DNA of 64,000 bases from NCBI GenBank assembly GCA_036172245.1, contig JAYWIR010000038.1, forward strand, positions 1,550,001 to 1,614,000. The letters run 5' to 3'. Of this stretch, positions 22,582 to 55,268 are shown one piece after another. The notes under the pieces were generated by a model. That model worked only from the letters and a program-made list of their open reading frames with translations. It had not been told where the DNA came from and did no database searches. Source of the stretch: Raillietiella orientalis. Taxonomy: Eukaryota. Made by a program: the position numbers and the translations under genes. Each line of letters opens with the position of its first letter. Positions within the stretch are counted from its first letter, which is position 1.

Positions 22582-22622
22582 GAGACTTCACTTTGATCTT
22601 AGCCAAAAGGCCAAGGAGCGAT
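22582..22622 (-). ncRNA. U2: U2 snRNA 5' fragment (about nt 1-41), truncated and non-functional
   Basis: Minus strand reads ATCGCTCCTTGGCCTTTTGGCTAAGATCAAAGTGAAGTCTC. The U2 5' end, recalled from memory, is ATCGCTTCTCGGCCTTTTGGCTAAGATCAAAGTGTAGTATC, giving 4 mismatches. Similarity stops there. Confidence 0.85.
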
Positions 22623-24229
22623 TTCTGAACGAAATCCACGGGAACGCGGAAGGCCTCCTCTCAGGAGATACGGATGGAGAGAACGTGCAAGCTGAGTTGA
22701 CGGTCGTTCCTGCAAGGTCCCCTCTCTGCAAGGTTTCCTCTATGAGAACATGAAGCCATCCACCTTTCTGGACATTAGTTCGATAGGGTGAAGGGCAACT
22801 CGATCTCAGAATCCAGCGGTGCACAACCGCTGTCGGCATCCCCCTCCTTCATCTTCCTCTTCCTCTCCACCTTTTGTTTTTTTTTTTTTTCGCTTTCCTC
22901 TCGCATAGCCAGTAGCCAAGATGAGGCACGCCGCAGCCAGAAATCTTGCCCGCTCCATATGCAGACAGACGCATACCTTTCTTGTAAAGTTCACAAATAA
23001 CGCTTCCCTCCCGCCCAATCTTCATTCCTCCGGTACCGTTGACGATCAACAGCCTCTTCTCTCTTCTGCTTCTTTCATTGCTCTCTGTCGAAATCAAATC
23101 CCTTTTTTTTTGTTGCTGTTGTTATTGCTTCCTTTTTTCTTCTGTGAAAGGGGTTTCGTGGAGGCTCAGGTGAGAGGTATGCTCTCCAGCACACCACGGA
23201 GGGAGCACCTCTACCTGCATCTCCTCTAGCTCTGAGCAGATGCGACGGGAGAAAAGAGGAAACCATTTCTTCATTTCCTGGGAACTCTCCTCCAATGGAG
23301 TGGATTCGCCGACCAGCAGAATCACCCTCTCCTCCCCAAAATAGACCCACATGAGCTGCCATCCCTCAGAGCCAACCAGCCAACTGAACACACCTGCTCT
23401 TTCTCCTGGGTTGCTGCAAACGAGAGTTAGATAAGAAAATTGTGTGCTGAATTTTCTCCAGACGGGGTGAGTGAGGGAATTTCTGGAACAGCTGGTCCGT
23501 TGGTGCAAGCACACACTGCGTCTTACCGCGTCCTATGTACACCCGGAGAGCAGCGACCTGTAAGCGAGACGGAAGACACAAGAAAAAGGAATGTCCTGTC
23601 AATTCATGGAGCGTTAGAAGTCTCGGGATATAGATGGAGAAAACTCGTGATAGCTGCTTTTCCAGTTTTTTCGTTCGTCTCTGCCAATCATTCTATTCTA
23701 TATGAAATCTCTCAGTTGTTTCAAAGCTCCTTGCCCTCTTGCATTCAAAGAGCCTACTGGCAACACTGGCGGGAGATACCGCAGCTGCTCACACGGGCTA
23801 GCAACCAAACTGGGCAACGTGACCTGCTCTTCCGTGAACAGGGACGCGAATCCCTCCCTTATTCTTCTTGGCCACTTGCGTGCCGCAGGAGAGAAAACGA
23901 CCTCTGATGACTCTTCGGAAGGATTCCTAGCTTCCTGAGAAGTCAGGCAGCTTCCTCTTGCCTCTGGCAAGCACCAGGAGCTTCATAGGTTCTGGACATT
24001 CTCGAGCAGTCCTTTCCCAAGAAAAGACGGCTAATCATGCCTGGTGCTTGCCATGTTAGCAAGCATCCTTTAACATTACACGCTCAACACAGAACAGCCA
24101 GGCGCTTTGTATTGCGACAACCATTTTCGCTAATAAAGTCTCAGAGTTTCTTCTTGGAAGGAAGTTTCCATCAATCACAGCATTTCTTTGTTCTACACCA
24201 GAAACTAAAACACAAAAATTTCAGATGAA

Positions 24230-25230
24230 TATTCCTTGAAATTAGCTTAACAGACAGCTTCATGCTGATTGGCTCAACACATTGAATGAACCATTTAGAA
24301 GATCAAGAAGGTGGAACCATTGAAAGTATTTCAAGTTCTCTGTTGGAAAGAGGCCACCATACCTTTCATCTGCAATAATAACTGAACATGGTCCAGGTTC
24401 TTTGCCTCAGTGGAACCAGATGAGCGATAATACGAATTATTTGAATCTTATGATGTTCTGGTGCCTTGTGACCAGTGACTCCCGGAAATATAGGCTCGAT
24501 AACATCTCAGGAAACGTGGCAATAGTGACGGTACTAGTTCTGTTCTGCCCAGTTGCTCAGGTGTCATCTCTCTTTTTGGAGCACCTGCTTTGGGCAGTTC
24601 AGACATGGGAGATTCATTTGCAGCCACTTCTAGTATTTCAATCATCTTATTATTGTCCATGGCTCTTTGTAACTCAGTACACCAGCGCAGCAGGTAATTA
24701 TATCAGTTGCTTCGCCACTCGTGGCAATCCCGTGATGAATATCTGCAACTATTTAAGTTCATCTTCAGCTTTGAGTGGGTCATCGGCTTCCGATGCTAAT
24801 ATGACACCTCGGCAGAGGCAGCAGCGAAAAGAGCAACTCGACTTTTCACTTGGGCTGCAGAAGATGCTATTCCCTTGATAGTGGAGTCCTGTTGAGACGA
24901 TGGGTTCCACTGTACCGCGTCAATGCTATCAAGAAGCGCCATGATTGGATAGAGTGATGCGTCCATGGGTTTCAACGTGATCAACAGTCAAAAGATCACA
25001 CCACGCAGTCTAGTATTCGATAAATTCATTTTCCAATGACATGAATTCATCTCTTGTATCAGTACAATCGAATACAAATTGCAGCATGGGTTTCATCACA
25101 AATGACGCAGGAAAAACGCCATGCGTTTGAACAATGCGGGAGCCACATCAGAAGATGAGACATTTAGATAAACTCTGCAGCCATCTGTTCAACAAGAGCA
25201 GCAGCAGATATCTGGTGGCATATCAGCGGG
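24230..25230 (-). mobile_element. Degenerate hAT-family transposase relic
   Basis: FKRMAFF, KMNLSNTRL (for LKxLSxTRW), LYPIMALLDSI, and LPK..KR...CYRAYI (for LPR..RQ...YYR..I). Contains stops and frameshifts; no TIRs identified. Confidence 0.45.
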
Positions 25231-26079
25231 CAATAAGAAACTCAGTTTGGTTTCTGTGAGGGATTTGTCACTTCCCAAAGTCCTGTGCAGGTTTCAGCTT
25301 TCCTCGAAAACCTGCAAAGTAGAGGTGTTTTCCTCCTTAAGGACGAGGAGGGCCTCTGCTAGGAACCAGTTCGGATGTGCCAAGATGGTGTTCCTGAAGA
25401 AATTATTTGTCCTCTTGAAGGATGTGAGCACAAGAAATAGGCCTCCAAAACGTTTGAAAATCCACAGACGATGGCTATGGAGTCTATAGGATCTTGATCA
25501 GCACTGTCGACGGCAGCCTTGTCGTGATACAGCAAAGCTTTTATCTTTCGTGCTTCGCACCTCCTCTTAGGCACCACATCGGAGTATCTGTATGACTGTA
25601 TTTTCCTTCGGCACACACAGTCATACTCGCCAGCTTCCTTTTCCCTGGCATACCCCACGGTGCATCTAACACCAGAGAACACATCTGGTAAGAGGACGGA
25701 TGGGTGTTCCTCCGCCCTCTTGTACTCTTGCAAGTAGCCCAAACACAGCTGTCAAAGGAATTGAAAGCCGTGATGTGGAGATGGTTAGAGAAAAAAAAGT
25801 CCCCATGCCCCCTTTTTCTCTGCTTCCGGAACAGGATAGTCAGATTTCTCCCGGTCCTCGAGCGGTTCACTCGAGGGAGGAGTAACACGCTGGAAGTGGC
25901 AGAACTGACTTTGCTTCCGGACTGTGTCCAGATGCAAACCAGAAAGCTGCCCTCATCTCCTCTGCATCCTTTTAGACACGTCGTCTCTCTCTTTTTCCTT
26001 TGAACGGCAGTTCGGATCTCAGCACTGCAGCCTCCCGAAGCGAGGGTGACTCCGAAAAATCAAGCCGTCCTTTCGCTAT

Positions 26080-28320
26080 TCCAAACTCTCCTCAACAGGA
26101 GTCACAGACAGGCAGAGTGATCCCCTAGTAAGCAGCTCAAGAGTCTTTCTTCCCTCAGCCTCAGGGATGAATACAACAGACTCCAACTGGTCTCCTCCGA
26201 CACAGACGGAACTTATCTCACACGATTCCACTCTTGTTGGTAATCGGAAGGAATGCGGCATCCCAGGGCACTCGAACAGGGCTCGCCTCCGTAAGATGAA
26301 ATCTTCTTCGTGATTCTTCTGCGAAAGCCTCGAATCCACCAAGGAAGGTTTCGAAACTCCGCCCTTGGGAGGCTGATCACCTGAGAATGTACCAAACATC
26401 CCGCATTGTCTCTGAAATCCAAGCGATGGAGGAGGGAGAGGACGGCAGCCTCTCAGGCAAAAAAGAGATGGGTCCTCTCCCTATCCGCTACTCTCTTGAC
26501 TCCCGACAGTCCAGGGTCATCAGACGCTCATTTACGGCATCTCACCCATCCAGAGTGCTTTCAGTGGAAGGAGGGAAGAATTTGCTCCAGAAAGAGACCA
26601 CCAGTAATTTTGACGTGCACTGGATGTCGGAAGCAGCAACGAATGCCTACTTGTACTTTCGTTAGAACGAAAGTACCCCTGCGGGAAGAATGTATGTCTT
26701 GTAGGCTTCAAGCTGTAGGAAGGAGCCTTCCTCGAGAGACAGAGAAGGAACCCTCAGGAGAGACCACGTCTTGTTTCTGTTTCACTTGGACCCTTCCAAG
26801 GGCAACGAACTCCACGCCGACAGCCACGCAAGCTGGAAGACGCTGCTGCGCGTCTCCGGGAGTGTTTGGCATTAGGTTGCGCTCTCCTAGAGACCTCGAG
26901 TTCCCTCATTACCCTGTTTCTCTTCAGAATTCCTCAAACAAGCAATGGGGAGGAACGAACTACGGAAAAGATCGCAGGATCAACTTCCGCCGTAGGCCAG
27001 ATATCCACAGCATCCAGAGGAGCAAGAGAGGGCGGCACCCAAGGCTGTATCCATGGAAAAAAACAAACCTCAGTCCAGCTGCAAGGCAGAGTGAATCTCG
27101 GACGGAGGAACACTTACAACGATGGAAACCGTGGAAAAGCTGTATAGAGACTTCTGCCGCTGCACAATATATTCCTGAAGAAGGAAAAGCAAGGGATCTC
27201 CTATTCCTTGCTCATTTCTTCTTCTCCTCCCATAGATAGCAAGGATTCGTTTTGCTGAGCAGGCCTTCCCAGAGGCACTCTTCTTCAAGAAAAAGGGAAA
27301 AGAAGGGATTTCGTTTTCGTTTCCTTTAGAGATCCGACCTCTACAGCTCGTGGGACACAAGAAGATCGAGTGGTAGCTGAGACGGAGTGTTATGCGTTCC
27401 TGCTTCCTTGGAAGGATAAATTAGAGTTGGGTGGCATCCCGCTTGTCGGCTCGATCTCTTCCCCTTCCTTCTAGTGTTTAGTTACTGGCTGCCTCCGTGT
27501 CAAAGAGAACACTGCTTCTCTGACCTTCGAGGGGATCTCGGCAGCACGCAAGGACGTGCGCCTCTCCGAGAGGGCTTCTCCCCTTTCACTTTCAGTCACC
27601 GGTTAGGCGCTCCTGACCTTGAGTAGTCGGTCACCCGCACGCTTGCGCTCTCGTCAAATTCCATCGGATGATGGTTGTCATCTTTCCCGAAAGTGGGTTC
27701 CTCATCCATTCTCGACTCCATCCCTCCACCCGGCCTTTTTTCTCTCCTGGGTAGAAGAGCAACTCGATAGTTACTCTCTGAAGCCTGTACTTGTTCCTCT
27801 TCGCTCGATTTTTCGACCACCTGCATCCTCGGGGATTGTGCGAACTCTCACTCCCTGACCGAGATAATGTGGACACCCGAGAAATGATGCGGAGAAGAAA
27901 GTGCGAGGGAAGCTGAGAACCCGTGTTGTTCCGAGCAAGGGGACCCAGGGGAATGTGCGGACCTGCACTTTGCGAGATACACTCATTCTATGGACGTCCA
28001 CCAATCTCTGGACTCTTCCATCTTTCAAGAAGGACAAGGGACTTTCCTAGCTCCCAGAAAGCAACCTTCCACAGAGGCTCATTGATAGTGAGAAGGGTGA
28101 ATCTTCTTGGGATGTTGCTGAACCACCGTCGGAGAAGCTGCGGCAGGAACGGAAAAGGGCCACTTCTGCCTAAGGTGAACTCCAGACACAGACAGCGAAG
28201 CAAGAAAGATCCTTTTTAGTGCATGCAAGGGGATCGAGAGGAAGACTTTAGCACACCACAGTCTAACAGATTGAGGATCCAGGAACAGATGATCTTGGTT
28301 GGTGGGCCTCGTCTACTTCG
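26080..28320 (+). mobile_element. Degenerate Utopia/NeSL-like retrotransposon
   Basis: In correct order: GVTDRQSDPL, IQAMEEGE, EAATNAYLY, KPWKSCIETS...HFFFSSHR, then finger and RLE remnants at 27900-28320. Confidence 0.6.
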
Positions 28321-28596
28321 CCTCCGGCGGTGACCTGCTCACCCTTTCGATCCAGCTCCAAGGCAGGAGACAGTCGAGTTCAGAGACAGGAAGACTGCGC
28401 AGCCGAATATGCTGAGTAACTAGGCAGCTCCTGATTGCTTGTTTGAGGAATTCTGAAGAGCAACAGGGTAATAAGGGAACTCGAGGTCTCTAGGAGACGG
28501 GAGGAGAGCGCAACCTAATGCCAAACACTCCCGGAGACGCGCAGCAGCGTCTTCCAGCTTGCGTGGCTGTCGGCGTGGAGTTCGTTGCCCTTGGAA
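26794..28596. repeat. Inverted repeat pair 26794-26946 / 28434-28596
   Basis: Near-identical apart from about 2 substitutions and a 10-nt indel at the ctcct microhomology. Confidence 0.95.
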
Positions 28597-28599
28597 ACT

Positions 28600-31000
28600 T
28601 GCATCATTCAATAATGATTTTGTGCACCGCGCAAGATTAGAACGATGGCCCCGTGGTGTCATCACTGGAGAGTGAAACCAACACTGAGGTTTTTGTTTTA
28701 TTCCTGACGATAGCGTTGGGACTGACTGTATTCCAGCTACCAAATAAAAAGACCTCCGAGCATCCCCGTGAACTACGGATGTTTGGATGACCTCCATAGC
28801 TCCAGTAGTTGGCTCTTCGCGGTTCTCAGGATAGAGAATTGATGAGAAAAATGAAGATCCTGCAGCCGTACCTCGACGGAATGAGCTGGATGCCCCTTCT
28901 GGCGTTGCTTTTTCAGAGTGCTAGCAATGGGGCTTCCTACTGTTGTTCCTAGGATAAGATACAGCCGTGGTGACTATTATACCCACAAATTGGGAGATCT
29001 CGCTGATGAAGCAAACGCCCAGGACATTGACATCCAAGTGCATTCAAGTTAGGTACTGACCGATGAGGATGTGGGCGGAAGATACCCGGAAATTATTCCA
29101 TAACCGCATGAGGGCAGAATAAGGTGGGCATGGTGGGAAGGCAAAGGAGGCCCTTCAATCCTCTATTCGACATAACCCCCTCCGCTCACTCAACAGACAG
29201 AATTGGAACTGAAAGGCAAACATCTCAAGGTGGGAGCTGCACGGAGCTTTCGAGACCAAACAAAAGACATTGCCTGCCTAAACTGTCTCAGCCTTGAACT
29301 TCGATTAGGATTTGATCCAGGTGAGATTGCTGGACCTCAATAAAGCTTTATGAGTCTTCTTCAGTTGATTTCTCGCCCCCGGCCTGCCTGCCGATGTCGT
29401 CCAAATTCCTTCCGAAATGTGAACTTTGGAATTTGATGATCAAACATTGAGAACTCAGTGGCAAGTGTGGATCGCTCACAGGGAGTGGATCCTCTCGTTG
29501 CGATCCACAGATGCAGGGGAAAAAAAAAGATGCAAGCGCATACAACTTCTGAAAGGAAGTGCTCCTCTCACGTGCACCACCATACCGAACCGACAGATTC
29601 CACGCCGGTCCGAGCAACCGCAAACCAGCTAAATCCTGGATGTTCCAGAAATAAATGCGCCGTAATGTTTTACAAGGAAACCATGTTTTATCGGTTTGCT
29701 CCATTGGGTGACAGGGAGAAAAAGCAAGTCCGAAGATGCAAGGATAAGAGAGAGGATAGAGATAGAAAGAGCATAGATAGAGAGAGCATGATCAGTAATC
29801 CTTGGGGTGCTTCCACGGACGGTTTCTTGGCCGAAATCGAGCAGGGAGTTGAGAGGATCACCATTGAAGAGTACATCTCGGAGGCATCACGTTCTCGACC
29901 ATGCTGCATCCTCCCGTGTAAGGGGCTTCAGAATCAAATGATGACCACACTCAGTCTGCAACGACGTTGCGCGAGGCGCTGCAGGTGTAATCGAGCCCTC
30001 GGAGGTCAGTTCTTGAGTCCACGGCCGAGGAGTATGAAAGGGTCGCAAGCAGCGGGGCAGAATTGTTCACATCACTGGCGGTGTGCTCTGCTAAGACGGG
30101 CTGTGCGCATTTTCCTGCCCAAAGAATGAACCACATGAACCACCACCCCGGAATCAAAAACCCGTCGCCAAGCCGAGTACACGAAAGTCCGGAGATGCAG
30201 GTGCCCGAAAGAGTACCTCGATAGAATTCCTCCGATACCAGGGCTGAATTTCGGGAGATCCCTGCTTGAGAAGAAAAAATCGAAGCGCTTTCGAGACAGA
30301 GGTATTCCAGCTTACTAAAAAAACACGCAAAGTCTTCCGGGCTAAACCATTAAGGAAGGATTTCGGAAAAGACCAGTAGACCCGACGAAGAGCTGTGGGA
30401 TACCAAAGCTGCACCGGATCAACACGAATAAGCAAACCATGAGGGTTGTCCATGGCTTCGGGGAAACTCAGTGTAGCATCGCTGCTCTCGTTGACGAAGA
30501 GCACTTCAGGAATATATCTGAATCCGTAAATCCCTAGTTACCCAAGGATGCTGTAAGTATCAGGAAGAACATAAGCACCCTGGCTGACCTATCACTCTTG
30601 ATCAGGTTGCCTGCATCCTGTAGGAAACCGAAACTCCGCTTCCGGTTACGACCGTGTTCATGGTCGTTCAGACGAAAACCCCGTTCATCACCCTTAAAGT
30701 ATGCCTTCAGATTGAGATGTTGGGCCCCTCTCGTGCCAAACGTCCCCAGATGGAGGAGGACGTTTTGTTTCATTCCAGATGCATTATTCTGACTTATTTG
30801 CACAAGATTTCCATTTGCATTGTTTCTTGGCTAAGAATTTCGCATACTCACAGGAGACTGATTGGTGCTGTGAATCCAATATACTTGATTAGAAGGCAAC
30901 GCCACCAATGGATTTCGGGCACCGAAATCCATTGGCAGAGTCTCCCACCGAATTCGCTGGAAGCAGTCGGAACGGCTGCCTGGTAACACACTAACCTTTC
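28600..31000 (+). mobile_element. Degenerate R2-like retrotransposon pieces (RLE end, then RT of another copy)
   Basis: DIQVHS (for DAQVV) and KVGAARSF at 28900-29300. VERITIEEY, RIFLPK, a GVRQGDPLSP-like remnant and ILTYLHKI at 29800-30850. Confidence 0.4.
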
Positions 31001-31120
31001 CTCGGCAAGAAAAGTTTCCCCTCTAGGACGAGATGCGAGTGGAAACCTGCATCTGAGTCGATTCTGAAGAGCGGGAGCGGAAATCTTGCAAGAAGGCCTG
31101 AAAGCAAGAGAAGGCGGAGG

Positions 31121-33480
31121 ATGGATTCGGAAAAAGGACATTCGGGACTCCAACAGGGATCCGTCCACCTCGATTTAGTCCAGTTCCCGTGCTTCAAAGG
31201 AGTATTGAGGGGAGTCGAACAGCAGTGCCCATTGAGCACCCCGCTCTTTAACTTGGCCGTTGGCTTCATCTTGGGTTGTCCCTTCCGGAAGGCCCATTTC
31301 AGCGTGAGGGTGATCCAGTCATGTGGGCCAATCCAGAAGAGGGGCTACGCACTCGTCACAGACTCTGAGGTTCTGCCAAGCGGATCGTAGATTCAATCAA
31401 GAGCAGACGCCTAACAAATTCATCTTCAATTCTGAAGCTGCACTGCCAAGAAGAACCAGAAACACCGCCTTCAGGATTGGCGGACGCGTGGCACCAAGCG
31501 TTGTAGGTTCGAATCCCGCCTGAGAAAGGAAGGGCCGACTCCGAGAAATGGGTTTCTAATCCCCCCGGATTCTGGTTAGCTTTGCGTGCGGCTGCCCTGA
31601 TGGAATCCGGAAACCCTCGGATGTCTGGGTTGACTGGCCTGGATTGAGAGTGGTCCTCTGGGATCGTTCCAGGAATCAAGGAGCGCTGGTTCCCTTCGAG
31701 GTTCTTCTCCGGTTGTGAAAATGGACCGTCCCATTTTTCTGGATGGACGACGACTCTCTATCGCGTGCCATGGAGTTGGTCGACACCCCTCTCTGGAATC
31801 GCTTCTTCGGAGTGCCAGAAGCGCACTGCTCCCTTCAGGGAGCGCCCCTCAGAGGAGGGAACGGAGAGCGGTTCCCTTGCAGATGTCCTCCGGAGAAGGA
31901 ATTCCAGGAGCGGATCCTTTTCGGATTCCCTCTGGAATTCCCTTCAGAGACAGCCAGGGCGTTGTCTCCGAAGAGTTCCCGCAGCTTCCTCTTCGGCTCT
32001 AGAGATGCGTGCAAAAACTTCGGAAAGTCTGTCGGATGTGGAAGCCTCTCGGCAGAGCTTTTCAAGCACCAGCTGCTGGGGAAGAATCCTCACTCTTTCC
32101 TTGGAGAAAGGTGGATGCCATGAGAGCCTTCTTCTTTCCATGACTCTTGCATTACAAGAAAGTCGGGCCGTTTAAGAATGGTCTCTCGAGACGCCAGCGT
32201 CCGCCGGCAGACTGGAAAACGTCGGATGCTGCCAAGTCGAGATGCAAGTGATTCTGTACACATAGAACGATTCAGAAAATGCTTCGGCCCTCGCGACCTC
32301 TAGGCAGAGCAGACAACTTTGTAGCTGCTTCGAGCTGTGGACTTCAGGAGATCCGGAAGCTCGAGAGCGAGCACAAGGCACCCTGAGGGCGGTAGCCAGT
32401 CGTGTTACATGTTGCAGTGGACAAATGCATCGGATTTGGCACAAGGAATTTTCAGACGACGGGGTTTCGAGCCTCCGGGCATCTGCGGGCAATCTGGCAG
32501 TTCAGTAGCGGCAGGTCCAAGAATCGCCTCCTTCCCTGAACGCATGCGCGGGAAACTCGCATTGAATTGCCCACGCTCCAGAGCAAGGCAAGCCACCTAG
32601 GAGGCGATGTTCTGCATCGGTTGGCATTGCGCTCCCTGCCGCTTTCTCTCTTCCGACGACAACTGCGCTCATTTTACCGATTAGCTTCTCGACGCTTGGT
32701 TCCACTTCTGGACGAGTCACGTCAACCAGGGACGATGTACAGAAGGCGTGAGAATCAGAAAGAAGATTTTCGGCAGACCATCAACCATTGCACCTGTAAC
32801 TCCTATGGAATCGCGAAGAGTCACGATAAGTTGACCTGAAAGGTCAAGAGGATCACCATGTGCCAGCGGCAGCCGCTCCCCTTTAGTCGGCTCATTCTCA
32901 GAATGCACTTCAGCCTTCCTTCGCAGCCGGTGAATCAAAGATGAGATCGGGGCATCATGCTCGACCTAACTTGCTATTTCGAAAACTAGACGTGAATTAT
33001 AGGAGCTTCCAGGAAAAGGAGGAAGGGACTCTCTGGAACGTTTTCCCGAAGGAGTTTTCACTTCGGAGCGTTCTCTCGATCTCTAGGCCCGTGGGACCTT
33101 CGGTTCCTCGAAACAGAGTCCTGCAGGAAGCAATGATCCTGCAGAGGCAAGTCGATCTTCTGAGGTGGGGAATGTTCTTTGGTCGCATCCGGAACTCCTG
33201 CTTGATCTATTGAGAACATCGCTTGGCTTACTTCCAGTATGGTGCATATCAAAGCAACCCCAAACACCAAAATTCCGAACAATAAAAAGCCCGACAGATC
33301 CTAAAAACATATTAGAAATTAAAATAATAATATGTATGTTAAAATAAATTTGCATATTGATCTATATGTAAGTATATATGTTAATAATAAGTACATATAG
33401 TAATTTTATAATCTTTGCAATATATATTATTCTATGAATTAATCTATACAGAAATATACATATTAACATATATGTGTTTA
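31121..33480 (+). mobile_element. Degenerate Utopia/NeSL-like retrotransposon(s), RT to 3' UTR
   Basis: RGVEQQCPLSTPLFNLAV is a clear GVxQGCPLSPxLFN RT motif. The C-terminus reads ARPNLLF...VGPSVPRNRVLQ..RIRNSCLIY*EHR. AT-rich 3' UTR at 33280-33480. Probably two nested copies. Confidence 0.72.
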
Positions 33481-33559
33481 TTTTCAAGAAGGATTTTGGG
33501 TTGTTCGGTCTTTCGAACCGAATTCCATTGGGTAAGTTCCCAGCCCTACCACCTCCTAG

Positions 33560-34800: not shown

Positions 34801-35079
34801 TCATCTAAAGTGATGTTTGCAGCTGGAAGACCGATGCGTGCATGAACGAAGCCAAAGGGACCGCTCTCGCCAGGGGCACAACCAGGAGGAGAGGAGGTCA
34901 ATGAGGGACAGTCAACAGACTAATAAGTGGGAAATGAGGTGGGCCAACCCATGTTGAGGGCACCCCTGTCGGGTATTGGGCGAGCCGACCTGCTCGCAGC
35001 AGCTCTTGGTCTCCCCGGTACTCCGCTTCCTGAATTAGACGGCGAACGGGATTCTCCCCTTGGAGGAACTCCCGTTCTC

Positions 35080-35335
35080 TTTCTCCATTCTGGCGGCCAC
35101 CGCTGCTCTCACATCACCAAGGATTGTGTGGGAGAAGGCAGAGGCCGGAAGAGCCTGGAGGAGGGAGCATCTTTTCATGTAGGTCCTATGGGGCGGCACC
35201 ACCGAGGGCCTCGGCAATTCGCTCCCATCGCCGGTACGGGCTTTCTCATGCCGGGAGCACGTGCAGGCAAGATTGCCACCACCACGCAGAGAGCACTCTT
35301 CTTGGGGTAGTTCTCGGTGATGTGTTTCCTCGTTC
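35080..35335 (-). repeat. ~260 bp dispersed repeat, copy 2
   Basis: Reverse complement aligns with 3956-4217. Confidence 0.9.
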
Positions 35336-39899: not shown

Positions 39900-40500
39900 T
39901 CGAAAATAGTTTTCCGATGTTTCTTGAGCTTCCAGCAGGCAGCTCCAGGTGCATTCGCGCACGTGCCATTTTTTTAAAAAATTCACCAACCGATTGAGGG
40001 CTCAACAGGGTGGTGTTATCTGGTTTGACATCAGGGCAAACTGATTTGCCTCCATTCTGAACCCTCCGTCTCGTACCATGGAACTCGTGGATAGATCATG
40101 TCTTTCCAGAGTGCAGTGAAGCGTGCCTCTCCCTTCAGGGAACGCCCCTATTGAGAAAATTCGGAAGCGTCTCTTCGGGGTTCTCTTCAGAGGAGGAAAC
40201 CAGGAGCGGTTCCCTTGCGGGTGCTCTCCATAGAAAAAATGGAGCGGATCCCTTCAGGGGTCCGCTCCATTTTTTCTCCATTATTTCCCTCCGGAGGGGT
40301 CCCTCCGGAGAGAATAAGGAAGAGGTCCCCCTTTGGAGACAACCAAGGTGGAGATTCCCTTCGGAATGCCCCAGGCGTGAGAGGAACGGACTCCCTTCTC
40401 CGGAGCCCTTCCTGGATTCATAAGGTAGTTCCCTCCCGGGGTTACGCCCTAGCTTGAAAAGTCACACGCACCCCCGGGTGTCATGGACAGGTGCCTTGTT
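39900..40500 (+). mobile_element. Degenerate RT fragment, related to 31600-32000
   Basis: VIWFDIRAN (for WLDLxNAF). Direct nucleotide similarity to about 31775-31960 (cccttcagggarcgcccc...gagcggttcccttgc...ggagcggatcc). Confidence 0.5.
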
Positions 40501-42560: not shown

Positions 42561-42739
42561 CTCTAGCTTCAAAGCTCGTGCCAGCTGAGGATCCACTGGA
42601 CTCCGGTCTTTAAGCATTAGTCTAGAAGCATAAGTCTTCTGCACATAAACCTTAAGCATTCCCTTCCTTGTAAACAGAGATGCACATCCCAAACAGCCAC
42701 CCAAGGTCGTGCTGTTAGGATGCTGAGGACAGTCGACTT

Positions 42740-44700: not shown

Positions 44701-46499
44701 CAGTTTGTGTGTCCTTTTAGAGTCCAATCACGTGACAGTTCGACCCGAAGAGTACAACTGTGAGAGCGAAACAAACGCCCCTGCCTCCAATAAAGAGGAT
44801 TCTTATGAAAGCGTCGATCCATCACAGTAGAGTGGCAGAACCTTAGGCAGTAGGTACGAACCGAAGTACCAACGCTTTAGAGAGGTTTGATCGTTCCCAC
44901 CAAGACCATCAAGACCCAGCTGTAAAACATTCTTCCGTCCAGAGACAAGCGCGCGCTCTGAATGAAGGCTGGCTGCCGGCCTGTAACTGAGGAAGAGTGC
45001 TGGAAACATCTCTCTCCCTCTGACAAAGTGAAGCGAATCTCCTTTATTCCCTTCAACTTTATCGAGGTCATTGATCTTGATTCCTTCTTCACAGATTACA
45101 GTTCAGTACCTCTTTGAGGAAGAATTCCACAGCTGCCTGTTTCCTTAGGAACGCATGAGCAGGCGTAGACCTTCTCGTTGTCAACGAGGAGCATAAAAAA
45201 ATTTCCGGTTAGGCGAGTCCTCAGACGAAGACATCACAACTCGGTTCCTCCGAAACGTTTCAACTTTCACATCCGAATTCTGCATTGGTCGAGGAACATT
45301 GCATACCAAAACTTTAAATGGCGATCGCTATTGCTCCACGGAAAGAAAAATGGTCTCGTGAGATGCTGGCTGGAGCTCTTCCTGGGGTTCAGGTTTCTCA
45401 CTCATCTACAAATCCTACTCAAATATAAAATGGCTGAGTTCCAGACGATATAGGAATAGGGAGTTGCTGTGGTTTGAAGCTCCCCTTGCATGCAAAAACA
45501 AGATAAAAAAAGGAACATTCATGTCCCTGATAAGACGACAGTCCAATGCCATCTCTGCATTGCTGCATCTATCTCCAATTTCCTATTTCGTTCCTGTTTC
45601 TGCTAGCTGGCTCCTCTTTTGTCCCCGATCCAGACTTGAGTGCACAACTGGAACAGTTCCCACTGCTTTCCTTTTCTTAGACTGAAGAAAATGCAAACTC
45701 TCTTTAGCATTCAGAGCTACAGAAAGAGAAAATTGAAAAAAATTGCGATGCGACTCAGTCTTCTGTGGCATTCCGGATTCGTGATGCTTCACATCATGGA
45801 TTCGTTGTTCTCGGGTAAATGGCATCACTGACTTGGCAGAGCGATGGAACCTGGCCCTTCTAACACTTCTGCCCATCCGATGAGGCAGATGGCTGGCTGT
45901 TCGTAGGGCATATGGTAGTTGTAGCTATCAAACAAATCGAAAGGGATGACAACAAAACGCAGGGAGACGACTGCACCCAATCGACTGATCCTCGGAGAGG
46001 ATTCCAGCCTCCAATCTGACCCTCACTTGCCCTCGAGACGAATGGACTGCACTCGACGTAAGCCGACGTAATTGCGACGATGCAATTACACTCGAAGTAG
46101 CCTGACCATTCGGGAAGAGAGCTCAGCTTCTCAGGGAGATCGCAGCAAGAGGGAGAAAATAGAATTCTGGAGTCTCTCCATCTCCTTTTGAAGGAAATTT
46201 TCCTCCTTGAAGTATGGTGACATCTTGAGAAAGCTCTCTTGCTTCCGAAGCGAATCTCCGGGGTACTTGCCGAATCGTTTCTTCGTGCGGAATGTATTTT
46301 TCGTCTGCCACGGTGGTGGCCAACGCTGGTTTTGTCCTCGGAATAGAGACCCACCTTGTCGTGTAGCCGAATGGCTCCGGCAGTTTGGGACTCCTCCGTG
46401 ATGGGCAGGGCGTCGAAGTGGTGCGCTACTGGAAATCGTAGTAAAGAAGGAGGTCACCTGCATCTTGCGTGGGCTGTAGAAGGCACGGAGAGGCCAGCC

Positions 46500-48700
46500 C
46501 GATGACCCACTGGCTCACCTCCTAAACAACGTAATCTTATTTATTTTTTTCCTCTGCTCTCTCCTGGCGACGGTCTCCGCCAGCAGCCCACCCACAAATG
46601 GAAATCCACCCTTTCCTGACCCAGCGTAGCACCGCGCTTCCTACTGGCGCGTCGTCTCCTCTCCTAGCAAACGTCCTGGGGAGCCTGGGAGAAGCAACAG
46701 AGCCAGAGCGCAATCCCAGAAATCCTTTCCATCAGCGATGCATCTGCAGTCCGGTAAACATGAGCTCGTCTGGCGTGTCCGTCTTCTGCACGGCATTCGT
46801 CCAACCTAGGCTGTGCATCGGATGACACGAGAAAGGGATTGTGGCCTGGGAAACTGAGGATGACAATTTACACGTTGGGAACGAAAGACTTGACCCATCT
46901 CTCCAAAAATGTGACTGAAAAAGACACCTCAGAAGATCCGACATGAGAGCGCAGTCACATCATCCACGAATGTCGAAAGCCCGGCACATCTTCCCGAAAA
47001 CCTCTTCGGAATAAACACAATGAGCACCGCAGGGACGACTCTTATTTACCTCCCGGCTCCTTGGACCAGGGTAGCGACAGGAGAGGACGCGCGTTCCTGG
47101 ACTCCGGGAACACTTCCGGTCCAATCGACCCGCATGCGCACTGCACGACGGGCGGCGAGACCCGGAGGCCAGCGGCGTCCCTCCCCATCCGCCCAGACAT
47201 CCGCCGAGGGCAGCGTCTCCGCCTCCTCCGCGCTTCCAGCGTCGCATCCAGGTTCGACGCCGCCTCTCCCCTCCCCTTCCCCCCCCCCGCGGACTCCACG
47301 CCGTGCTGCCGCAGAGCCGGCGCTCGTGCTGCGGCAGCGCGGGGCAGAGGCAGCCCGGCTCGCAAAGAGGAGGCGCCCTTCATCCCTTTCCCGCTTTCTA
47401 GCGTGGGAATGCCGCGAGGTGCCCGGGACTTTCTCCTCTCCGCCGAGGTCTCCTCGCAGGCCCGGTCGCTTCTCGCCCGCACCCACGCGAGCCGTTCGCC
47501 GGACGCTCCCTGGACGCTTCCGAGTGCCGCCGCAGAAGGCCTTTCTTCGGCTTTCCGGTTTCGTCGCGCTGGCAACCGGGGAGGGAGCTCCTCGACGCTG
47601 CAGAAAACGAGGGAAACGAACCGTCGGAGTTGCTAGGCAGGAGCCAGCTTGTCCGGCTCCTGGCGGGTTGCAGGAAGGACAGGGCGCGACTCCAAGGTCC
47701 CCCTCCGAAGGCTGCGTGCGAGGGCAGGCGACTCGGTTCCGTCGGCCGCCTGTTGCTCTCTCGCGCGCGCGCAGACGTGGTGGTGGCGCCGCTCGGGGTT
47801 GGCGCATGCCTCCAGGCGACGGCGAAGCCCCGCAAGGACACTGGTCTCTCTCTCCAGAGGTCTCGTTGCGCGCCTTCCGCAGTCTTGCTGCGCGCGCCCC
47901 TTGCTAGCTGCGGGGGACGCGCAGGGGCCCGCTCGTGGGCGGCGCACGGCAACAGCCTCCAACTTGCGGGCGTCCGCCTCCCTCGCGCTCCCGTTGCCCT
48001 TCGGGTTAGAGATGGAGGTCGGTGCTGGCGTCTGCGCCGGCTGCGCCCGCCGGGCTCCCGAGTAGGCCATGTGCTCCCGAGTGCCCTGCGTTGGCCTTCC
48101 GACAGGAGGGTGTCGATCCTCCGGCATCGAGCACCGGTTACTTTTCTTTCCGTCTTCCTCAGGCCCTTCGCGAACCCCGGGTCTGCTCTTCCGCGCCACC
48201 ATCCCCTTCCGGAGGAGGAAAGAGGTATCCCGGAAACCACGTGCGGCGAGGAAGGGGGAAGGAAGAATTCACCTATTCCTCTCCCTCTGCGGAGACGGAG
48301 GGAGGGGAACAGGAAACTCCCGGCCGGGTCTGATTCCTGGGGGATCTGTCGACCTCTTCCGCGAAAGATGCTGCGTGCAACAACAGCACTGGATCTTGGA
48401 GATTCTATCAGCAGAGCGCCCGAAGGCGCAAGCTGGTCTTCGGCAGGAGGTTGGGTTCTTTGCCAGCTCCAAGCTTGCTTTGGTTTGTGCGTGGCACCCG
48501 ACATGCGTGACCCCTTCTATTCCTTGATAATCCTCACTCCTATTTCTTTTTTTGAATCCCATATCCTTTGGAAGATGGAGGGTTGCAGGCTCCCCTAGTC
48601 GCCTCAGGCGTCCGCGATCCGAAAAAGGTTCACATTTGTGTCGAGCTGGTTGGATCAGGGAATCCGGACTGGAGAGGTCCTGGAAGACTAAAGAGAGACG
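46500..48700 (-). mobile_element. Degenerate RLE retrotransposon containing the left IR arm
   Basis: Beyond the arm the reading continues RPCGAHCVYSEEVFGKMC (finger) and SQATIPFSCHPMHSLGWTNAVQK (for DVTIPFE..AR..K). Confidence 0.55.
47066..48441. repeat. Left arm of ~1.38 kb near-perfect inverted repeat
   Basis: Reverse complement of 52589-53963. ORF-track translations 47633..48202(-) and 52827..53396(+) are identical. About a dozen differences seen by eye, clustered toward the arm ends. Confidence 0.97.
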
Positions 48701-49699
48701 CGCGGAACGGGAGGAGCTGCCCCTCCTGTGGGAGTTTCTCGTGGACAGGCCAGCTGGGTAGTGCAGGCGAAACTGAGGTTAAGGGGTTCGACGGAACCAC
48801 AACTTAAAGGGAAGCTCCGGGCAGCTACTGGAAGATCGCTCCCTGTGAACCAATCGCCAAGAGAAGAAGCAATTCAGGAGAGGGGAGTTGGGGGGAGGCA
48901 TCAGAAAGCGCTCTCCCGTTGGTTGCCTTAATCCCAGCTCGGCATTCTGAGGGATGACGAATTCGCCTCTTCTTCAGTTGTTCTCGACAGCATGGAAAGA
49001 AATAAAACGGGACGACGGTCTTTTTTACTCGATGCTGTCCGATCACACGGTGACGAATTTCTTAGCTGAGTTGGGCAAAAGGTCCAGGTGAATAAAAAAC
49101 GGATGCTGCCTTTCAGACTGGGAAGCGTCTTCGCTTACAGAGCGGATGAAGCAAAAGGCACAAATAGTGCAGCATGACGAGAGAGACGGATTGTTTGTGG
49201 GGACCGAGATGGATGGTCTGAAGGTGGTTAGTGGTAGGACGACGGAGGATTTGGAGATTCAAAGAGGCGAGGCGCGAAAGGGGCATCCATCTGGAATCCA
49301 TCCGCTTCCATTCTGATGCACCTGACTCTTGCAGTGCCGATCTGAGAGCATTTTCCTCTCCCGAGCGACTTCTTCCTCCTTGCAGATCGCGACTCCGGTT
49401 GGGTGGCATCCTGGCACTCGCGAGAGAGGCGTGCAACCCGGATGGGCTTGTGCATATTTGTGGACCTATGAGATTTTTGCCATCTCGGGTTCCCTTGAAA
49501 CTCTTCCGCATCTTTCGCAATCTGTCATCCTGGTTGGCCGGCGGATCTCGGCTTTCAATTTCTGAAAGTCGTATTTCATTCGACCGCACCACTCTTTTTG
49601 TCGAGTGATTAAAGACCGCCGGAGACCGGTAGGGAGAAAGTTTCATTCTTTTTTCTTTTTTTTTTTTCCTTCTCATTTTTGCTCTTCTTCGCTGCTAGG

Positions 49700-49739
49700 T
49701 ATTTAAGGTACGGACATCAAATTGACCCGCGAGACAGTC
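49700..49739 (+). promoter_or_regulatory. Putative TATA-like box and Inr of cuticle gene 2
   Basis: TATTTAAG at 49700-49707 and ACAGTC at 49734-49739, upstream of the ATG at 49789. Spacing is slightly long. Confidence 0.45.
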
Positions 49740-49788
49740 TGTTGGTTCCTCTCGTAGATTTGTTTTGCTGACCAGCATTGGACTCACC

Positions 49789-52262
49789 ATGCGCTCTTTA
49801 ATACTTCTGGTAAGTCAGTCCTGTTTTCGGATCCATTTGTCGACTCTTTAAGCGAATGCCGTGTGCTGCTACGCAGAGCCCAACTTTCCCTTCCCTGTGC
49901 ATCCGGGTCTCCGTTACCGCTGCTGCTGCTCTCGGTTTGCTCCCGAACGACCGTCTCTGCAAAGACCACCACCGCCGGGACGTGGTGGCCACGTGTTAGG
50001 CGTACTCGCGGACCCTATTGCGAGGGGGAATCGCCAGAGGGCACTCGCGTCTCTTGCGAACGCTTCCGTGCTGTTTGCAGAACGCGTACCGCTCTAAGTC
50101 GGCACTGCCCTTCGCCGACTCCCGCCTGCAAGAAAGCGCAATCCCTATCGATAGGTGAGTGGACTTTGAATGGCCTACTTGTCTGAAGCCGTCGACTTTC
50201 GATGCATTCCCTGCGCCGCCTCCGTGCGGAAAAGCGCCAGATCTCTGCTTCCAGGCTGGGGGATCCAGGAATCCCGTTTGGGGGACGCACACTTGGTGCG
50301 TGTCCTCCGCAGGGGAGTTTTCGCTTGCGCAGAATCCGTTTTTTGAAGTGTCGGAAGCTGAACTGATCCGCTATCCCTCTTCCTGACGGATGGATCCCTG
50401 TCCAAGTTGATAACTAGATGGCATCCGTCGTTCAGATGTGCATCGAGGTCTCTCTCAGCGCTCGGAGGCGTGATTGCTGGCTTGGATCACCGACCAGTGC
50501 GTTTGATTCTTCGAATGGAAGGCTGTACGGGATGGCTTGAATGCTCCTCCGACGCGCGAGGATTCTGGAGTTGGCCGCCTCCTCGCGTAGCGATCGAAGG
50601 AAACATTTCCTCCTGGGATGGAAACTCGAAAGATGGATTTCGGGACAGAAGTTCTGACGCACTCCTGAAGCCCACGATTTCCAGGATCTCGTTTCTCTTT
50701 GATGTCCTCTCTCGTCACAGATCTATTCGGATGAGTTGTCGCAGGAACCGCGTGAAGAAACTGCTGCTTCTCTATATGTATATATAAGCAGACAGGTATA
50801 CACTTGTTCTTGCCCCTATTCGTACATGCCGAACAGCATTTCTCGAAAGAGGTACTTCGGCATGTCGAACTCAAGTAACGTAGCAAAAATCTGGTTATCA
50901 AGCCGTGTATGTCAAAAACAAAAAGTGTTTCTTCTTGGAGATGCCGCCGCATCTCAGTATCTAAGCAAAATCTTCTGAACGTGAAGATCAAGCGCAGTTG
51001 CTGTCGGGAATACAGACAACAGGCTCTGGGCAGTGCGGGGGATATGTTCTGTATTAAATGGACCCGATGGGTTATCTATGCGTAATATGGTAGTGTTTTT
51101 AGAGGACGTAAAACGTACCTCATACGTCATAACAGTAGAAAATGCATTATTTCACTTTGAAAGAAAAAAATTGAGGATGTTTATTTAGCTTGAAGCAGTG
51201 AAAAGCTTTTAAGAGTTCTGTTTTCATGTAATCGATCCAGATGATCGCATAGCTTCACCTCTATCGTGCTCTTTGTCGAAAAGTGTATCTTCCTGCGATG
51301 TCTTCCTGACGAAAATTTGAATGGAACCCAGTCGAATCACATAATCGTGTATCCTGGAAGAAGAAAAAAATACAGCATCCCGGCTGACGCAGGAGCACTG
51401 CAAAATTGAAATTTACCCACAGAGGCGAATGGAGATCACCGACTGCATTTTAGGAGGACGGCCGTCATTTTTCTGCGCGTCGACCGTCGAATCCGCGTCG
51501 CCTTACAGTGATCCGTCGACTTGCGCTCCTGGGAACGACGTGCTCCAGCCACCGGGATCCACGCGGATCTTCCTGCTGCTCCGTTCGTTCTCACGTCCTC
51601 CGACGGTCCGTGAGCATCCGCAGAGGTGCGCTCATGAGCAACAGCACTGCAGACGCGCTCTTTAGGATTCCCATGAGGCACTTTTGCTCGAACAGCACGC
51701 GTGCGCCACGTATGTGGCGTGTCTGTGTGGGGACCAAGTGTGCCAACTGTCGTGCGCCGAGTGCATGAACGCGCGGAAAGCGCCTCGGGACTTTGCGCGG
51801 AAATCTGTGACACGTGGCAAGAAAAATTTACTGAAGTGGTTTTTTGGCATTCCAGTTCTTGGCCGTCGCTGCAGGAATCATTTCTGTCTCGGGAAGACCT
51901 CAGGACCTACCTTACATTCCGATCCTTCAGTACAGATTCGACTACAAACCGGGGGAATCCTACTCCTACTTGTAATGCACCCATTTGACTCTCCACCTAC
52001 TGTGGCATGGCTTTCTTTCTCTCTCCCTTCCCCCTCCCTCCCCTCTCTCTCTCTTATTCTGGAATTTCCGATCAGGTACGAATCGGGAGACAAAACCAAG
52101 AAGTTCGAAGACGGGATCCTGCCCAAGACTGACCTCGAAGCCATCACGGTGAAGGGAGAATACAGCTACGTCGACCCGGACGGCGGCTTCAACAAAGTCA
52201 GCTACATCGGCGACCAGCAGGGCTTCCGCTCCAACGTGGAACTGAACTTCAAGCAGCCCTGA
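49789..52262 (+). CDS. Cuticular protein, divergent RR-1-like chitin-binding domain, 3 exons, 107 aa
   Basis: Exons 49789-49809 (MRSLILL|gtaagt), 51856-51971 (ttccag|FLAVAAGIISVSGRPQDLPYIPILQYRFDYKPGESYSY-TT|gtaatg) and 52076-52262 (atcag|G-YESGDKTKKFEDG...KGEYSYVDPDGGFNKVSYIGDQQGFRSNVELNFKQP*). Phases match and the signal peptide ends ...VSG-RPQ. AATAAA at 52341-52346. Exons 2-3 are strong. Exon 1 is inferred from signal-peptide fit and from matching the architecture of gene 1. Confidence 0.88.
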
Positions 52263-52559
52263 GCCACTCCCAACGTGCGAGGCACCGGAACGAGGGGCAG
52301 CAGAGCGTCGAATACCGGACAGCGCATGCGGCAATGAGCAAATAAATGACGCGACAGGAGAAATTGGCCGGCGGAAGTCGAGTTCTTTGATAGAAAACGC
52401 TTCCGGTTCCAAGAGACGCCTTTCCTGGTTCAATCCGACTCGCCCTCGCATCACCTGGACTTCCTCAGGAGACCCGAGACACCTCTTGTGCAAAAAGACA
52501 CTCGGTTTAACTCGCTCCGGTCCCTCTCAACAGCTCCAGTTCTTCCCGGAAATTCATGG

Positions 52560-54545
52560 CAAGCGCGGCACTCGCCTCCTTCGCGTTGGAAGCCCACTTG
52601 CGCCTTCAATCGCTCTGCTGATAGAATCTCCAAGATCCAGTGCTGTTGTGGCACGCAGCATCTTTCGCGGAAGAGGTCGACAGATCCCCCAGGAATCAGA
52701 CCCGGCCAGGAGTTTCCTGTTCCCCTCCCTCCGTCTCCGCAGAGGGAGAGGGATAGGTGAATTCTTCCTTCCCCCTTCCTCGCCGCACGTGGTTTCCGGG
52801 AAACCTCCTTCCTCCTCCGGAAGGCGATGGTGGCGCGGAAGAGCAGACCCGGGGTTCGCGAAGGGCCTGAGGAAGACGGAAAGAAAAGTAACCGGTGCTC
52901 GATGCCGGAGGATCGACACCCTCCTGTCGGAAGGCCAACGCAGGGCACTCGGGAGCACATGGCCTACTCGGGAGCCCGGCGGGCGCAGCCGGCGCAGACG
53001 CCAGCACCGACCTCCATCTCTAACCCGAAGGGCAACGGGAGCGCGAGGGAGGCGGACGCCCGCAAGTTGGAGGCTGTTGCCGTGCGCCGCCCACGAGCGG
53101 GCCCCTGCGCGTCCCCCGCAGCTAGCAAGGGGCGCGCGCAGCAAGACTGCGGAAGGCGCGCAACGAGACCTCTGGAGAGAGAGACCAGTGTCCTTGCGGG
53201 GCTTCGCCGTCGCCTGGAGGCATGCGCCAACCCCGAGCGGCGCCACCACCACGTCTGCGCGCGCGCGAGAGAGCAACAGGCGGCCGACGGAACCGAGTCG
53301 CCTGCCCTCGCACGCAGCCTTCGGAGGGGGACCTTGGAGTCGCGCCCTGTCCTTCCTGCAACCCGCCAGGAGCCGGACAAGCTGGCTCCTGCCTAGCAAC
53401 TCCGACGGTTCGTTTCCCTCGTTTTCTGCAGCGTCGAGGAGCTCCCTCCCCGGTTGCCAGCGCGACGAAACCGGAAAGCCGAAGAAAGGCCTTCTGCGGC
53501 GGCACTCGGAAGCGTCCAGGGAGCGTCCGGCGGACGGCTCGCGTGGGTGCGGGCGAGAAGCGACCGGGCCTGCGAGGAGACCTCGGCGGAGAGGAGAAAG
53601 TCCCGGGCACCTCGCGGCATTCCCACGCTAGAAAGCGGGAAAGGGATGAAGGGCGCCTCCTCTTTGCGAGCCGGGCTGCCTCTGCCCCGCGCTGCCGCAG
53701 CACGAGCGCCGGCTCTGCGGCAGCACGGCGTGGAGTCCGCGGGGGGGGGGAAGGGGAGGGGAGAGGCGGCGTCGAACCTGGATGCGACGCTGGAAGCGCG
53801 GAGGAGGCGGAGACGCTGCCCTCGGCGGATGTCTGGGCGGATGGGGAGGGGCGCCGCTGGCCTCCGGGTCTCGCCGCCCGTCGTGCAGTGCGCATGCGGG
53901 TCGGTTGGACCGGAAGTGTTCCCGGAGTCCAGGAACGCGCGTCCTCTCCTGTCGCTACCCTGGCCCAGAGAGCCAGAACGGAGGGCATGGGTTCCTCTCT
54001 CGTTTCTCATAGGAATAGCGGAGATCAGAATTGCTCCTCCTGTGAGTTTCCGACGCCCCTCCTCAGACGGATGGGTCACCTGGATGGTGGATTCATGGTG
54101 GGAGTGCTTCCCGCTCAGAGGAGGCATGCAGAGGAGAGTCGGCGACGAACCGGAAGTGTGACTTCCGAAGGGGAGTGCTGGCGGCCCAGCAAAGAGGGCT
54201 CGGTGGCACTGCACAGGAGAGGCGAACGCGTAAGTCATCTCCTCCGCTCTCCGTAGTGGCGAAAGCTGCGGAGGAGGGTGAAGAGACAGCAGGAAGTTCC
54301 TCCCTTGCTTTCCTTCGCGTGCTCCAAACCCCCGGAGCGAAGGGATGGTGGGGATTCCGCAGTTTGGGTCTGAACATGGCGGGGCGTGTTGGCCGGCATG
54401 TCGAATCTCCGAGGGATTCACGGATGGCGATGCCCGGAGGGGATGCCGGCACGCACGAAGGTTGGGGATAGGAGAACTCGTTCGAAGTCTCTGTTCCTGC
54501 CATCGCTCCTCGTTTCAGCATAGTGGGTAAGGAAATGAAATAAAG
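52560..54545 (+). mobile_element. Degenerate RLE retrotransposon containing the right IR arm
   Basis: Beyond the arm the reading continues QNCSSCEFP...QRRH (finger/RH) and PGAKGWWGF (for GALGSW), ending AAATAAA at about 54540. Confidence 0.55.
52589..53963. repeat. Right arm of ~1.38 kb near-perfect inverted repeat
   Basis: Reverse complement of 47066-48441. The ~4.1 kb spacer contains all of cuticle gene 2. Confidence 0.97.
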
Positions 54546-55228
54546 TGAGTTGGGGAAAAGCAATCTCCGGGAGTCACCGAACCCACGTCGAGGCCGTCAG
54601 CTTCCCGTTGAGGGAGGCGACCGTTCCTTTAGTCCTGTGCTACTCCACTGAGCAGGCATCAGCGGTTTCCATAGAGTTTCTTCGAGAAAGGTCGACGAGG
54701 CTCGACGAGGTCCCGGATGGATCCGAGAGATTTTTCGACGTCTGTTCTGGATGAGGCGTGTGGCGCGTTCCTTTGCTTTCCTTTGGGGGAATTTAGCGTT
54801 TCCCCGGTGACCCGTGCAAAAATCCTGCCCTGCTCCTGCTGCGCATGCCTTCAGCGTATGGCGCGTCCTTTTCGAGGGTTGCGCGACCGAACGGGAACCT
54901 ATTCTGGAATCCATCAATCTGGGGCCTCAGGGACCGCTTCGCCTTCCGCACGCCTCGCAGACGTCCGGACTACCTGGGAACGCTGCAGGCTCCTCTGGCT
55001 TCCGGCGGATGGCTCCGAAATCGTCCTCGGTCTCTGGCGAGTTATCTTCTCCACACTCTCACCGAATGCGACGAACGGTACGGGTGCAATTGGTGCGCCC
55101 GTACTCGCGACTACTCGTGGAATCAGGCGTTCCCACAGAGGTCGTTCCGCTTCCGCGGAAGATGCTGTGGGATGCTAGTCGCCCCGGCCAGCTTTCTTCT
55201 CTTATGCTGCCGCGGATTCCCCCACTTT

Positions 55229-55268
55229 GATACACACTTTGATCTTAGCCAAAAAACCGAGAAGCGAT
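55229..55268 (-). ncRNA. U2: U2 snRNA 5' fragment (about nt 1-41), truncated and non-functional
   Basis: Minus strand reads ATCGCTTCTCGGTTTTTTGGCTAAGATCAAAGTGT-GTATC, i.e. 2 substitutions and a 1-nt deletion relative to the U2 5' end. Similarity ends after GTATC. Confidence 0.88.

Follow-up and report, generated by a model that had tools for sequence, protein, structure and literature searches.

Two 3′-truncated U2 snRNA fragments of Raillietiella orientalis, best read as worn tailless retrocopies from a population of several hundred

Tailless retropseudogenes of small nuclear RNAs (snRNAs) have been described as L1 products that are primed internally at single-stranded regions of the RNA (Noll et al. 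2015, PMC5322556), and the human copies in file S1 of that paper comprise 666 of U2, 143 of U6 and 13 of U1. Utopia elements are U2-targeting retrotransposons of the NeSL clade that lack long terminal repeats (non-LTR) and carry a restriction-like endonuclease (RLE), with the arthropod members reported without target duplication and mammals absent from the hosts listed (Kojima and Jurka 2015, PMC4640811). Also comparable are the template-switch chimeras of snRNAs with long interspersed nuclear elements (LINEs), such as the heads of SINEU, a group of short interspersed elements (SINEs) (Kojima 2015, PMC4494074), and the L1 copies formed by twin priming (Kojima 2010, PMC2912911). Here we analyzed two U2 fragments, A and B, from a 64,000-nucleotide stretch (the window) of the 210 Mb assembly of the arthropod Raillietiella orientalis (contig JAYWIR010000038.1; G000:C38:1550001-1614000). 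Both are best read as dead, 3′-truncated ("tailless") U2 snRNA retrocopies that are ordinary, worn members of a population of several hundred copies, and it is probable that they arose by a route not specific to Utopia.

The assembly contains U1, U6 and 5S genes and no intact U2 gene, which is probably an assembly gap. The U2 reference was assembled by joining two halves of one locus (L004), and positions are numbered on the host's own U2, which has one additional A at nucleotide (nt) 31; the Utopia insertion site, 38|39 in the numbering of PMC4640811, becomes 39|40. As first annotated, both fragments lie on the minus strand and correspond to U2 beginning at nt 1 (Rfam E-values of 0.22 and 0.54), with scores under the gathering score because the fragments are short. 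The absence of any following U2 3′ part and of an upstream U2 promoter was likewise confirmed, the 290-nt stretch upstream of A and B scoring 21 and 18, respectively, against the U2 upstream flank of L145, while another promoter-linked copy scored 158 and 60 standalone copies had a median of 17 and a maximum of 30. Both fragments are 5′-complete, at least 30 nt long, 3′-truncated and free of oligo(A), like the tailless retropseudogenes defined in PMC5322556.

The 20-nt motif shared by the fragments (U2 nt 15–34) gave 455 genome matches at ≤1 mismatch and 0 for the reversed control, so that the fragments are no chance matches, whilst U2 nt 1–24 gave 208 matches, 73 of them exact. At this density, two motif matches in a 64-kb window have a probability of P = 0.009, and about 29 such windows are expected. 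End points and flanks were examined for the 73 exact and 18 one-mismatch copies among the 208. The exact copies end at nt 24, 28, 30, 31, 32 and 39 (one each), 29 (two), 33 (four), 34 (14), 35 (12), 36 (11), 37 (17) and 38 (seven), that is, 65 end at nt 33–38, seven earlier and one at nt 39, and the only one of the 73 counted as passing the Utopia site is L085, which resumes U2 after altered nt 39–44. By arithmetic on this histogram, a randomly drawn pair of the 73 ends at the same nucleotide in about 15% of cases. A tight clustering of truncation points had been proposed as the signature of Utopia, and the clustering is indeed there; however, ordinary tailless U2 pseudogenes cluster too, so it does not discriminate. 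Six of the 73 copies are joined to Utopia-type sequence, three behind the common U2 upstream flank (L095, L124 and L145) and three off target (L142, L085 and L087), and the remaining 67 have unrelated flanks, save one duplicated pair. Five one-mismatch or 5′-worn copies (L315–L318 and L326) reach nt 40–42.

Target duplications of at least 7 bp were observed in 18 of 83 standalone U2 copies (66 exact and 17 one-mismatch), compared with a mean of 0.2 and a maximum of 1 in the shuffled control; the counts exclude the duplicated loci L110 and L150 and the six Utopia-joined copies. These duplications are 7–17 bp long, with 14 of the 83 copies having at least 8 bp, the lower limit of the 8–35 bp filter in PMC5322556, and a stricter criterion, applied with L085 and L087 still included, retained 15 of 68 copies against 0.23 in the control. 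In 15 of the 18 the duplication overlaps the U2 end by 1–6 nt, so that the target is complementary to the 3′ end of the copied RNA, and in L315 and L317 it overlaps the bases at nt 40–42. Neither a U2-like nor a TT/AAAA consensus was found at the target sites of 15 duplicated copies. Inverted U2 pieces also stand ahead of nt 1 in L063 (17/17, an inverted nt 41–25), L116 (12/12) and L321. Several small-RNA chimeras or neighbours were encountered in passing at L087, L073, L276 and L191, namely a U2-5S-Utopia tail, U2 beside a U6 5′ piece, and two back-to-back pairings of U2, one with a U1 piece and one with a 5S copy.

The population resembles the therian and anole tailless U2 copies described in PMC5322556 in being 5′-complete and about 33–38 nt long, without oligo(A), and with target duplications and 3′ target complementarity, and it shares with the mammalian set the marked predominance of U2 over U6 and U1. 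Among 119 human U2 rows of the same data, the commonest lengths are 35 (36 rows) and 36 (17 rows), and 78 rows lie within 32–37; these are 119 of the 676 listed copies (some chr1 rows, chr2 and chr3), and the lengths are RepeatMasker hit lengths rather than exact ends. Since human copies show both the U2 excess and the hotspot, and Utopia is unreported in mammals in the host list cited above, neither feature needs Utopia. Unlike the set in PMC5322556, whose survey covers 12 vertebrates and three plants and no invertebrate, the present copies come from an arthropod, show no TT/AAAA-like consensus and extend far less often past the hotspot, and the likely enzyme is of the Tx1/L1 type rather than mammalian L1. 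A rough density of 214–469 duplicated copies per Gb compares with 233 in human (PMC5322556), although the criteria differ.

Fragment A (22589–22622, minus strand) corresponds to U2 nt 1–34 with 32/34 identical positions, and carries no poly(A) and no target duplication that could be found. The first-pass annotation had both fragments stop right after GTAGTATC, which was not borne out, as neither contains an exact GTAGTATC and both inserts end on G34, not on nt 41. Fragment A is directly continued by AAGTCTCC, with ATC absent. The four bases after it resemble U2 nt 35–38 (3/4); since the sequence from nt 34 onward is 10/10 identical to L173 and L175, these bases are flank. The 3′ flank (22520–22589, minus strand) is a stretch of about 70 nt that runs antisense to a reading frame rich in glutamine, with two other copies (L173 and L175), and the similarity to them begins exactly at G34. 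The first five flank bases match U2 nt 34–38 at 4/5, which is likely a priming overlap, and fragment A may be a chimera of the snRNA with the 70-nt piece of glutamine-rich sequence. A different arrangement, with fragment A as a patch substituting about 95 bp of glutamine-rich sequence, was rejected, as the far-side similarity was not significant (92 and 187 of 500 shuffles were as good). The stretch 22400–22528 is a partial duplicate of the 3′ end of a cuticle-protein exon (compared with 22040–22180), and its reading frame continues through the antisense of fragment A to a stop just beyond, with no evidence of expression.

The main part of fragment B (55229–55268, minus strand) reads as U2 nt 1–41 with C13T, C14T and A36 missing, and its final three bases fit nt 39–41 or nt 26–28 equally well. 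A second copy of U2 nt 26–34 occupies 55223–55231 (minus strand), in which AAAGTG (55228–55223), the second copy of nt 29–34, comes directly after the main part, and similar repeated junctions were seen in L095, L038 and L314. An inverted copy of U2 nt 36–25 (10/12; 55266–55277, minus strand) overlaps nt 1–3 of the fragment in a twin-priming-type junction, and its score was reached by 2 of 340 random control flanks. By eye, a possible 6-bp target duplication of low complexity and below the detection threshold is present, with the left copy at 55278–55283 and the right copy at 55218–55223 (both minus strand), the latter overlapping G34 by one base. The nt 26–34 copy would be the first-made piece of cDNA, followed by a slip back along the U2 RNA, and twin priming would then account for the inverted nt 36–25 piece. 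As in L1 twin priming (PMC2912911), inverted and sense pieces are joined by a short overlap in B, L063, L116 and L321; the difference is that here this occurs on 35–40 nt of a non-coding RNA.

If A and B are tailless retrocopies, a LINE reverse transcriptase (RT) would have been primed by a chromosomal 3′ end left at a nick or break. A few bases of this end would have paired with the branch-point-recognition nucleotides exposed at nt 33–38, and the RNA would have been copied from the paired site to its cap, i.e., by internal priming on intact U2. Part of the branch-point-recognition nucleotides, the region of the hotspot, extends from the loop of the stem loop that interacts with the branchpoint (BSL) (PMC13019295). 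The stop would be set by U2 RNA structure and chance complementarity, and not by the Utopia site 1–6 nt further on. That the insertions were templated by RNA can be held with high confidence, and with good, slightly lesser confidence intact U2 was the main template; it was a template at least sometimes, because copies reach nt 40–42 and L063 carries the inverted nt 41–25.

The same footprint is found in other small RNAs of this genome. Matches to 5′ motifs, including genes, numbered 64 for U6, 52 for U1 and 36 for 5S (455 for U2; motif lengths differ), and 28 of 30 U6 loci examined are 3′-truncated, with truncated U1 and 5S copies also present. Leaving out the two full-length U6 genes, target duplications of 8–15 bp with overlaps of 2–6 nt occur in 6 of 28 truncated U6 copies (control 0.15), a rate equal to that of U2 (Fisher P = 1.0), and three U6 copies have inverted-piece junctions of the twin-priming type. 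The earlier suggestion that U2 pieces were retroposed in trans is thus supported as such, while its specific tie to Utopia is not, because U6, U1 and 5S give like copies, the targets are not U2-like and the same hotspot exists in human. An apparently truncated U4 5′ fragment was also noted at L093:9745-9823 (+), 4.7 kb past the window end.

The enzyme would be the abundant Tx1/L1-type ORF2 (open reading frame 2) protein. Tx1/L1-type elements, which encode an apurinic/apyrimidinic endonuclease with the RT (APE-RT), dominate the genome, accounting for 18 of 20 hand-picked RT loci and for 6187 candidates at first look, where the Utopia-type C-terminus gave 498, and elements with intact ORF1 and APE-RT ORF2 exist, often U1-headed. 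Duplication lengths, the U6 parallel and this abundance, together with the reported lack of duplication in arthropod Utopia (PMC4640811), make us lean somewhat towards a Tx1/L1-type rather than a Utopia enzyme. Resembling the chimeras of PMC4494074 are L087, L322 and the U1-headed Tx1-type copies, whereas A and B lack a LINE or SINE body. One intact Tx1/L1-type element (L291, G000:C71:407300-413400) has ORF1 and a 1177-aa APE-RT ORF2 directly behind a full U1 sequence, followed by U1 nt ~23–164 and the same leader, giving tandem U1-headed units of about 5.5 kb, which were also seen on C51, C188, C189 and C220.

Utopia-type elements are nevertheless present, in agreement with the first-pass annotation that a U2-targeting RLE element exists here. 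Their C-terminus gave 143 matches and 498 first-look candidates, off-target copies are common, and the best protein matches are R2-labelled ones from spider, tick and beetle at about 40% identity. Among six short stretches of young Utopia-type copies that were read for the on-target rate, at least two of which do not clearly reach the element end, none showed U2. L095, a 5′-truncated element between U2 nt 38 and nt 40, has RT-distal, zinc-knuckle and PD..D..K endonuclease motifs, and thus shows the RT, zinc knuckle, endonuclease and 3′ end at U2 nt 40 of a Utopia element. The genome agrees with the description in PMC4640811 in having such elements, whose 3′ ends lie at U2 nt 40 and whose 5′ junctions fall at nt 33–38, the promoter-linked ones being at nt 33 (L124), 36 (L099), 38 (L095) and 38 (L145). 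The top 30 Rfam U2 matches (L001–L030) all lack nt 1–39 and follow an A-rich element tail, with upstream Utopia-type protein matches in 13; these dispersed U2 3′ halves start at nt 40 behind diverse Utopia-type tails and have as much as about 150 nt of 3′ flank in common, which may reflect many dead U2 loci or 3′ transduction. At L099 (G000:C30:2721800-2731000) and L124, U2 5′ pieces linked to a promoter cluster together with several Utopia-type RTs, in mixed orientation; one U2 piece there is joined to an antisense element.

That many U2 sequences were broken by Utopia could suggest that each fragment is the 5′ junction of a Utopia insertion, or what is left of a U2 gene broken by Utopia, the element having since decayed or been deleted; we regard this as very improbable. 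Unlike Utopia insertions (PMC4640811), A and B have no downstream element, no U2 3′ part and no promoter, and their inserts end at nt 34. No RLE element adjoins either fragment, U2 from nt 40 onward is missing, and A abuts identifiable, unrelated sequence. The U2 pieces are only 6–7% diverged, a level at which an attached element could not yet have disappeared. The related proposal, 5′ junctions of U2-element co-transcripts, does not hold for A and B, as the 1.5-kb downstream flanks of both match neither Utopia-type proteins nor the Utopia-type 5′ end of L145/L142. The suggested element 5′ end at 54550–55228 is no repeat elsewhere and resembles neither L145/L142 nor Utopia-type proteins; the 3′ flank of B (54400–55222, minus strand) is single-copy and not a Utopia 5′ end, and across 54400–55700 nothing but the U2 piece matched elsewhere in the genome, with 40 of 64 candidates scored. 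Off-target copies capped by U2 do exist elsewhere, as proposed, at L085, L087, L142, L043 and L322.

Within the window, the description of a Utopia-like element field was overstated. By tblastn it contains one element end (~62770–63970), at a distance of 7 kb from B, and a second, faint remnant (32084–33240), neither of which is joined to A or B. The former belongs to an RLE-type (NeSL/Utopia-like) non-LTR element at 62430–64000 (minus strand), of which a broken 3′ part with zinc-knuckle and PD..D..K-like motifs is present and the RT lies just beyond the window. Its 3′ end is not continued by U2, nor is that of its close relative L334, and it is classed as Utopia-like only.

The same tailless product could instead have been made in trans by a Utopia-type RT that meets U2 RNA preferentially and primes or switches template at nt 33–38. 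In line with this, U2 caps sit directly on Utopia-type pieces (6 of the 73, plus L043 and L322) and at the junction on no Tx1-type piece; examples are L087, in which U2 nt 1–35 is followed by 5S and then a Utopia tail, and L322, which has U2 nt 1–38 ahead of 90 nt of Utopia tail and may carry a 9-bp duplication. The promoter-linked 5′ junctions at nt 33, 36, 38 and 38 and the 143 frequently off-target Utopia-type matches point the same way. However, U6 copies equal those of U2 in duplication rate, length and overlap, the targets are not U2-like, arthropod Utopia is described without target duplication in PMC4640811, Tx1-type elements are about 10 times commoner by candidate count, and truncated copies residing in U2 genes (L095 is one) can yield capped tails by co-transcription. 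Utopia caps some copies and its enzyme may have been the maker, but as the general source of the population it appears improbable.

Several observations weigh against intact U2 copied by a Tx1/L1-type enzyme. By the criteria used, about 78% of the standalone copies have no duplication, and neither A nor B passes the 8-bp filter of PMC5322556, because A has no duplication and that of B is a weak 6 bp, although the population does. The U2 caps found on Utopia-type pieces and on no Tx1-type piece at the junction are a further such point, as is the reported occlusion of the BSL loop bases by proteins in the 17S particle (PMC13019295), and the reference had to be joined from the L004 halves because the assembly has no intact U2 gene. 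Only 1 of the 73 copies extends past nt 39, whereas 35 of the 119 human rows exceed 38 nt (P = 2e-7, methods differing). No exact match to U2 nt 19–40 exists in the assembly, and the base after T38 is C in 13, T in five, G in four and A in three copies; A, which intact U2 has there, is not overrepresented. Alone among the features, the shortfall of copies beyond nt 39 might indicate a template specific to Utopia.

This sharp 3′ limit would be explained if the template were a short U2 leader (nt 1–38 and a few further bases) that was released from U2-Utopia co-transcripts driven by the U2 promoter, possibly through a hepatitis delta virus (HDV)-like ribozyme at the element 5′ end, and then retroposed. 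With many Utopia-broken U2 genes, co-transcripts would be common, and a ribozyme might free a capped leader of about 38–40 nt that was retroposed in hundreds; we consider both forms of this account quite unlikely. Co-transcript-type copies exist (L142 and L085), and R2 offers a precedent for such self-cleavage (PMC5035012). At the Utopia-type 5′ end of L145:329-410 (+) and L142:1405-1486 (-), a short hairpin whose loop reads CCTCG and, further on, GGCTAA were recognized by eye. Their order resembles that in HDV-like ribozymes, which would make the site a candidate. Nevertheless, Rfam returned no ribozyme match there, the stretch after nt 38 in L145 folds with z = −1.0, the loop and P1.1 pairing are non-canonical, and only two copies of this 5′ end exist in the genome. 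The mode lies at nt 34–37, not 38–40, copies reach nt 40–42, and B reads most simply through nt 41. A "CT" signature after nt 38 was considered as a mark of the released leader and discarded as not significant, the C after T38 losing significance once joined and duplicated copies were removed (8/19, P = 0.11). If true, the account would give Utopia an R2-like cycle of co-transcription and self-cleavage, of which no published report was found in the literature searched.

Read as tailless retrocopies, fragments A and B are neutral debris, and their population extends known biology modestly: an arthropod has tailless U2 copies by the hundred, about as dense as in mammals and with the hotspot in the same place. 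This suggests that the hotspot is inherent in U2 RNA rather than in mammalian L1. No arthropod report of such copies was found in the literature searched, the coverage of which was incomplete, and the one survey found there was restricted to vertebrates and plants. A U2 piece ending near nt 38 is no evidence of Utopia or Keno.

Other features of the window were also recorded. The genome has insect-type cuticle-protein exons (PF00379), as expected of an arthropod, and one in the window (~52000–52260) is enclosed by a 99% identical, 1378-bp inverted repeat (47055–48432 / 52597–53974). A near-perfect inverted repeat of about 165 bp (26794–26952 / 28428–28596) has its arms 1.5 kb apart. An abundant dispersed repeat with a tRNA-like T-loop motif occurs at 31485–31902, 40061–40481 and 56293–56980, and is perhaps a SINE family.

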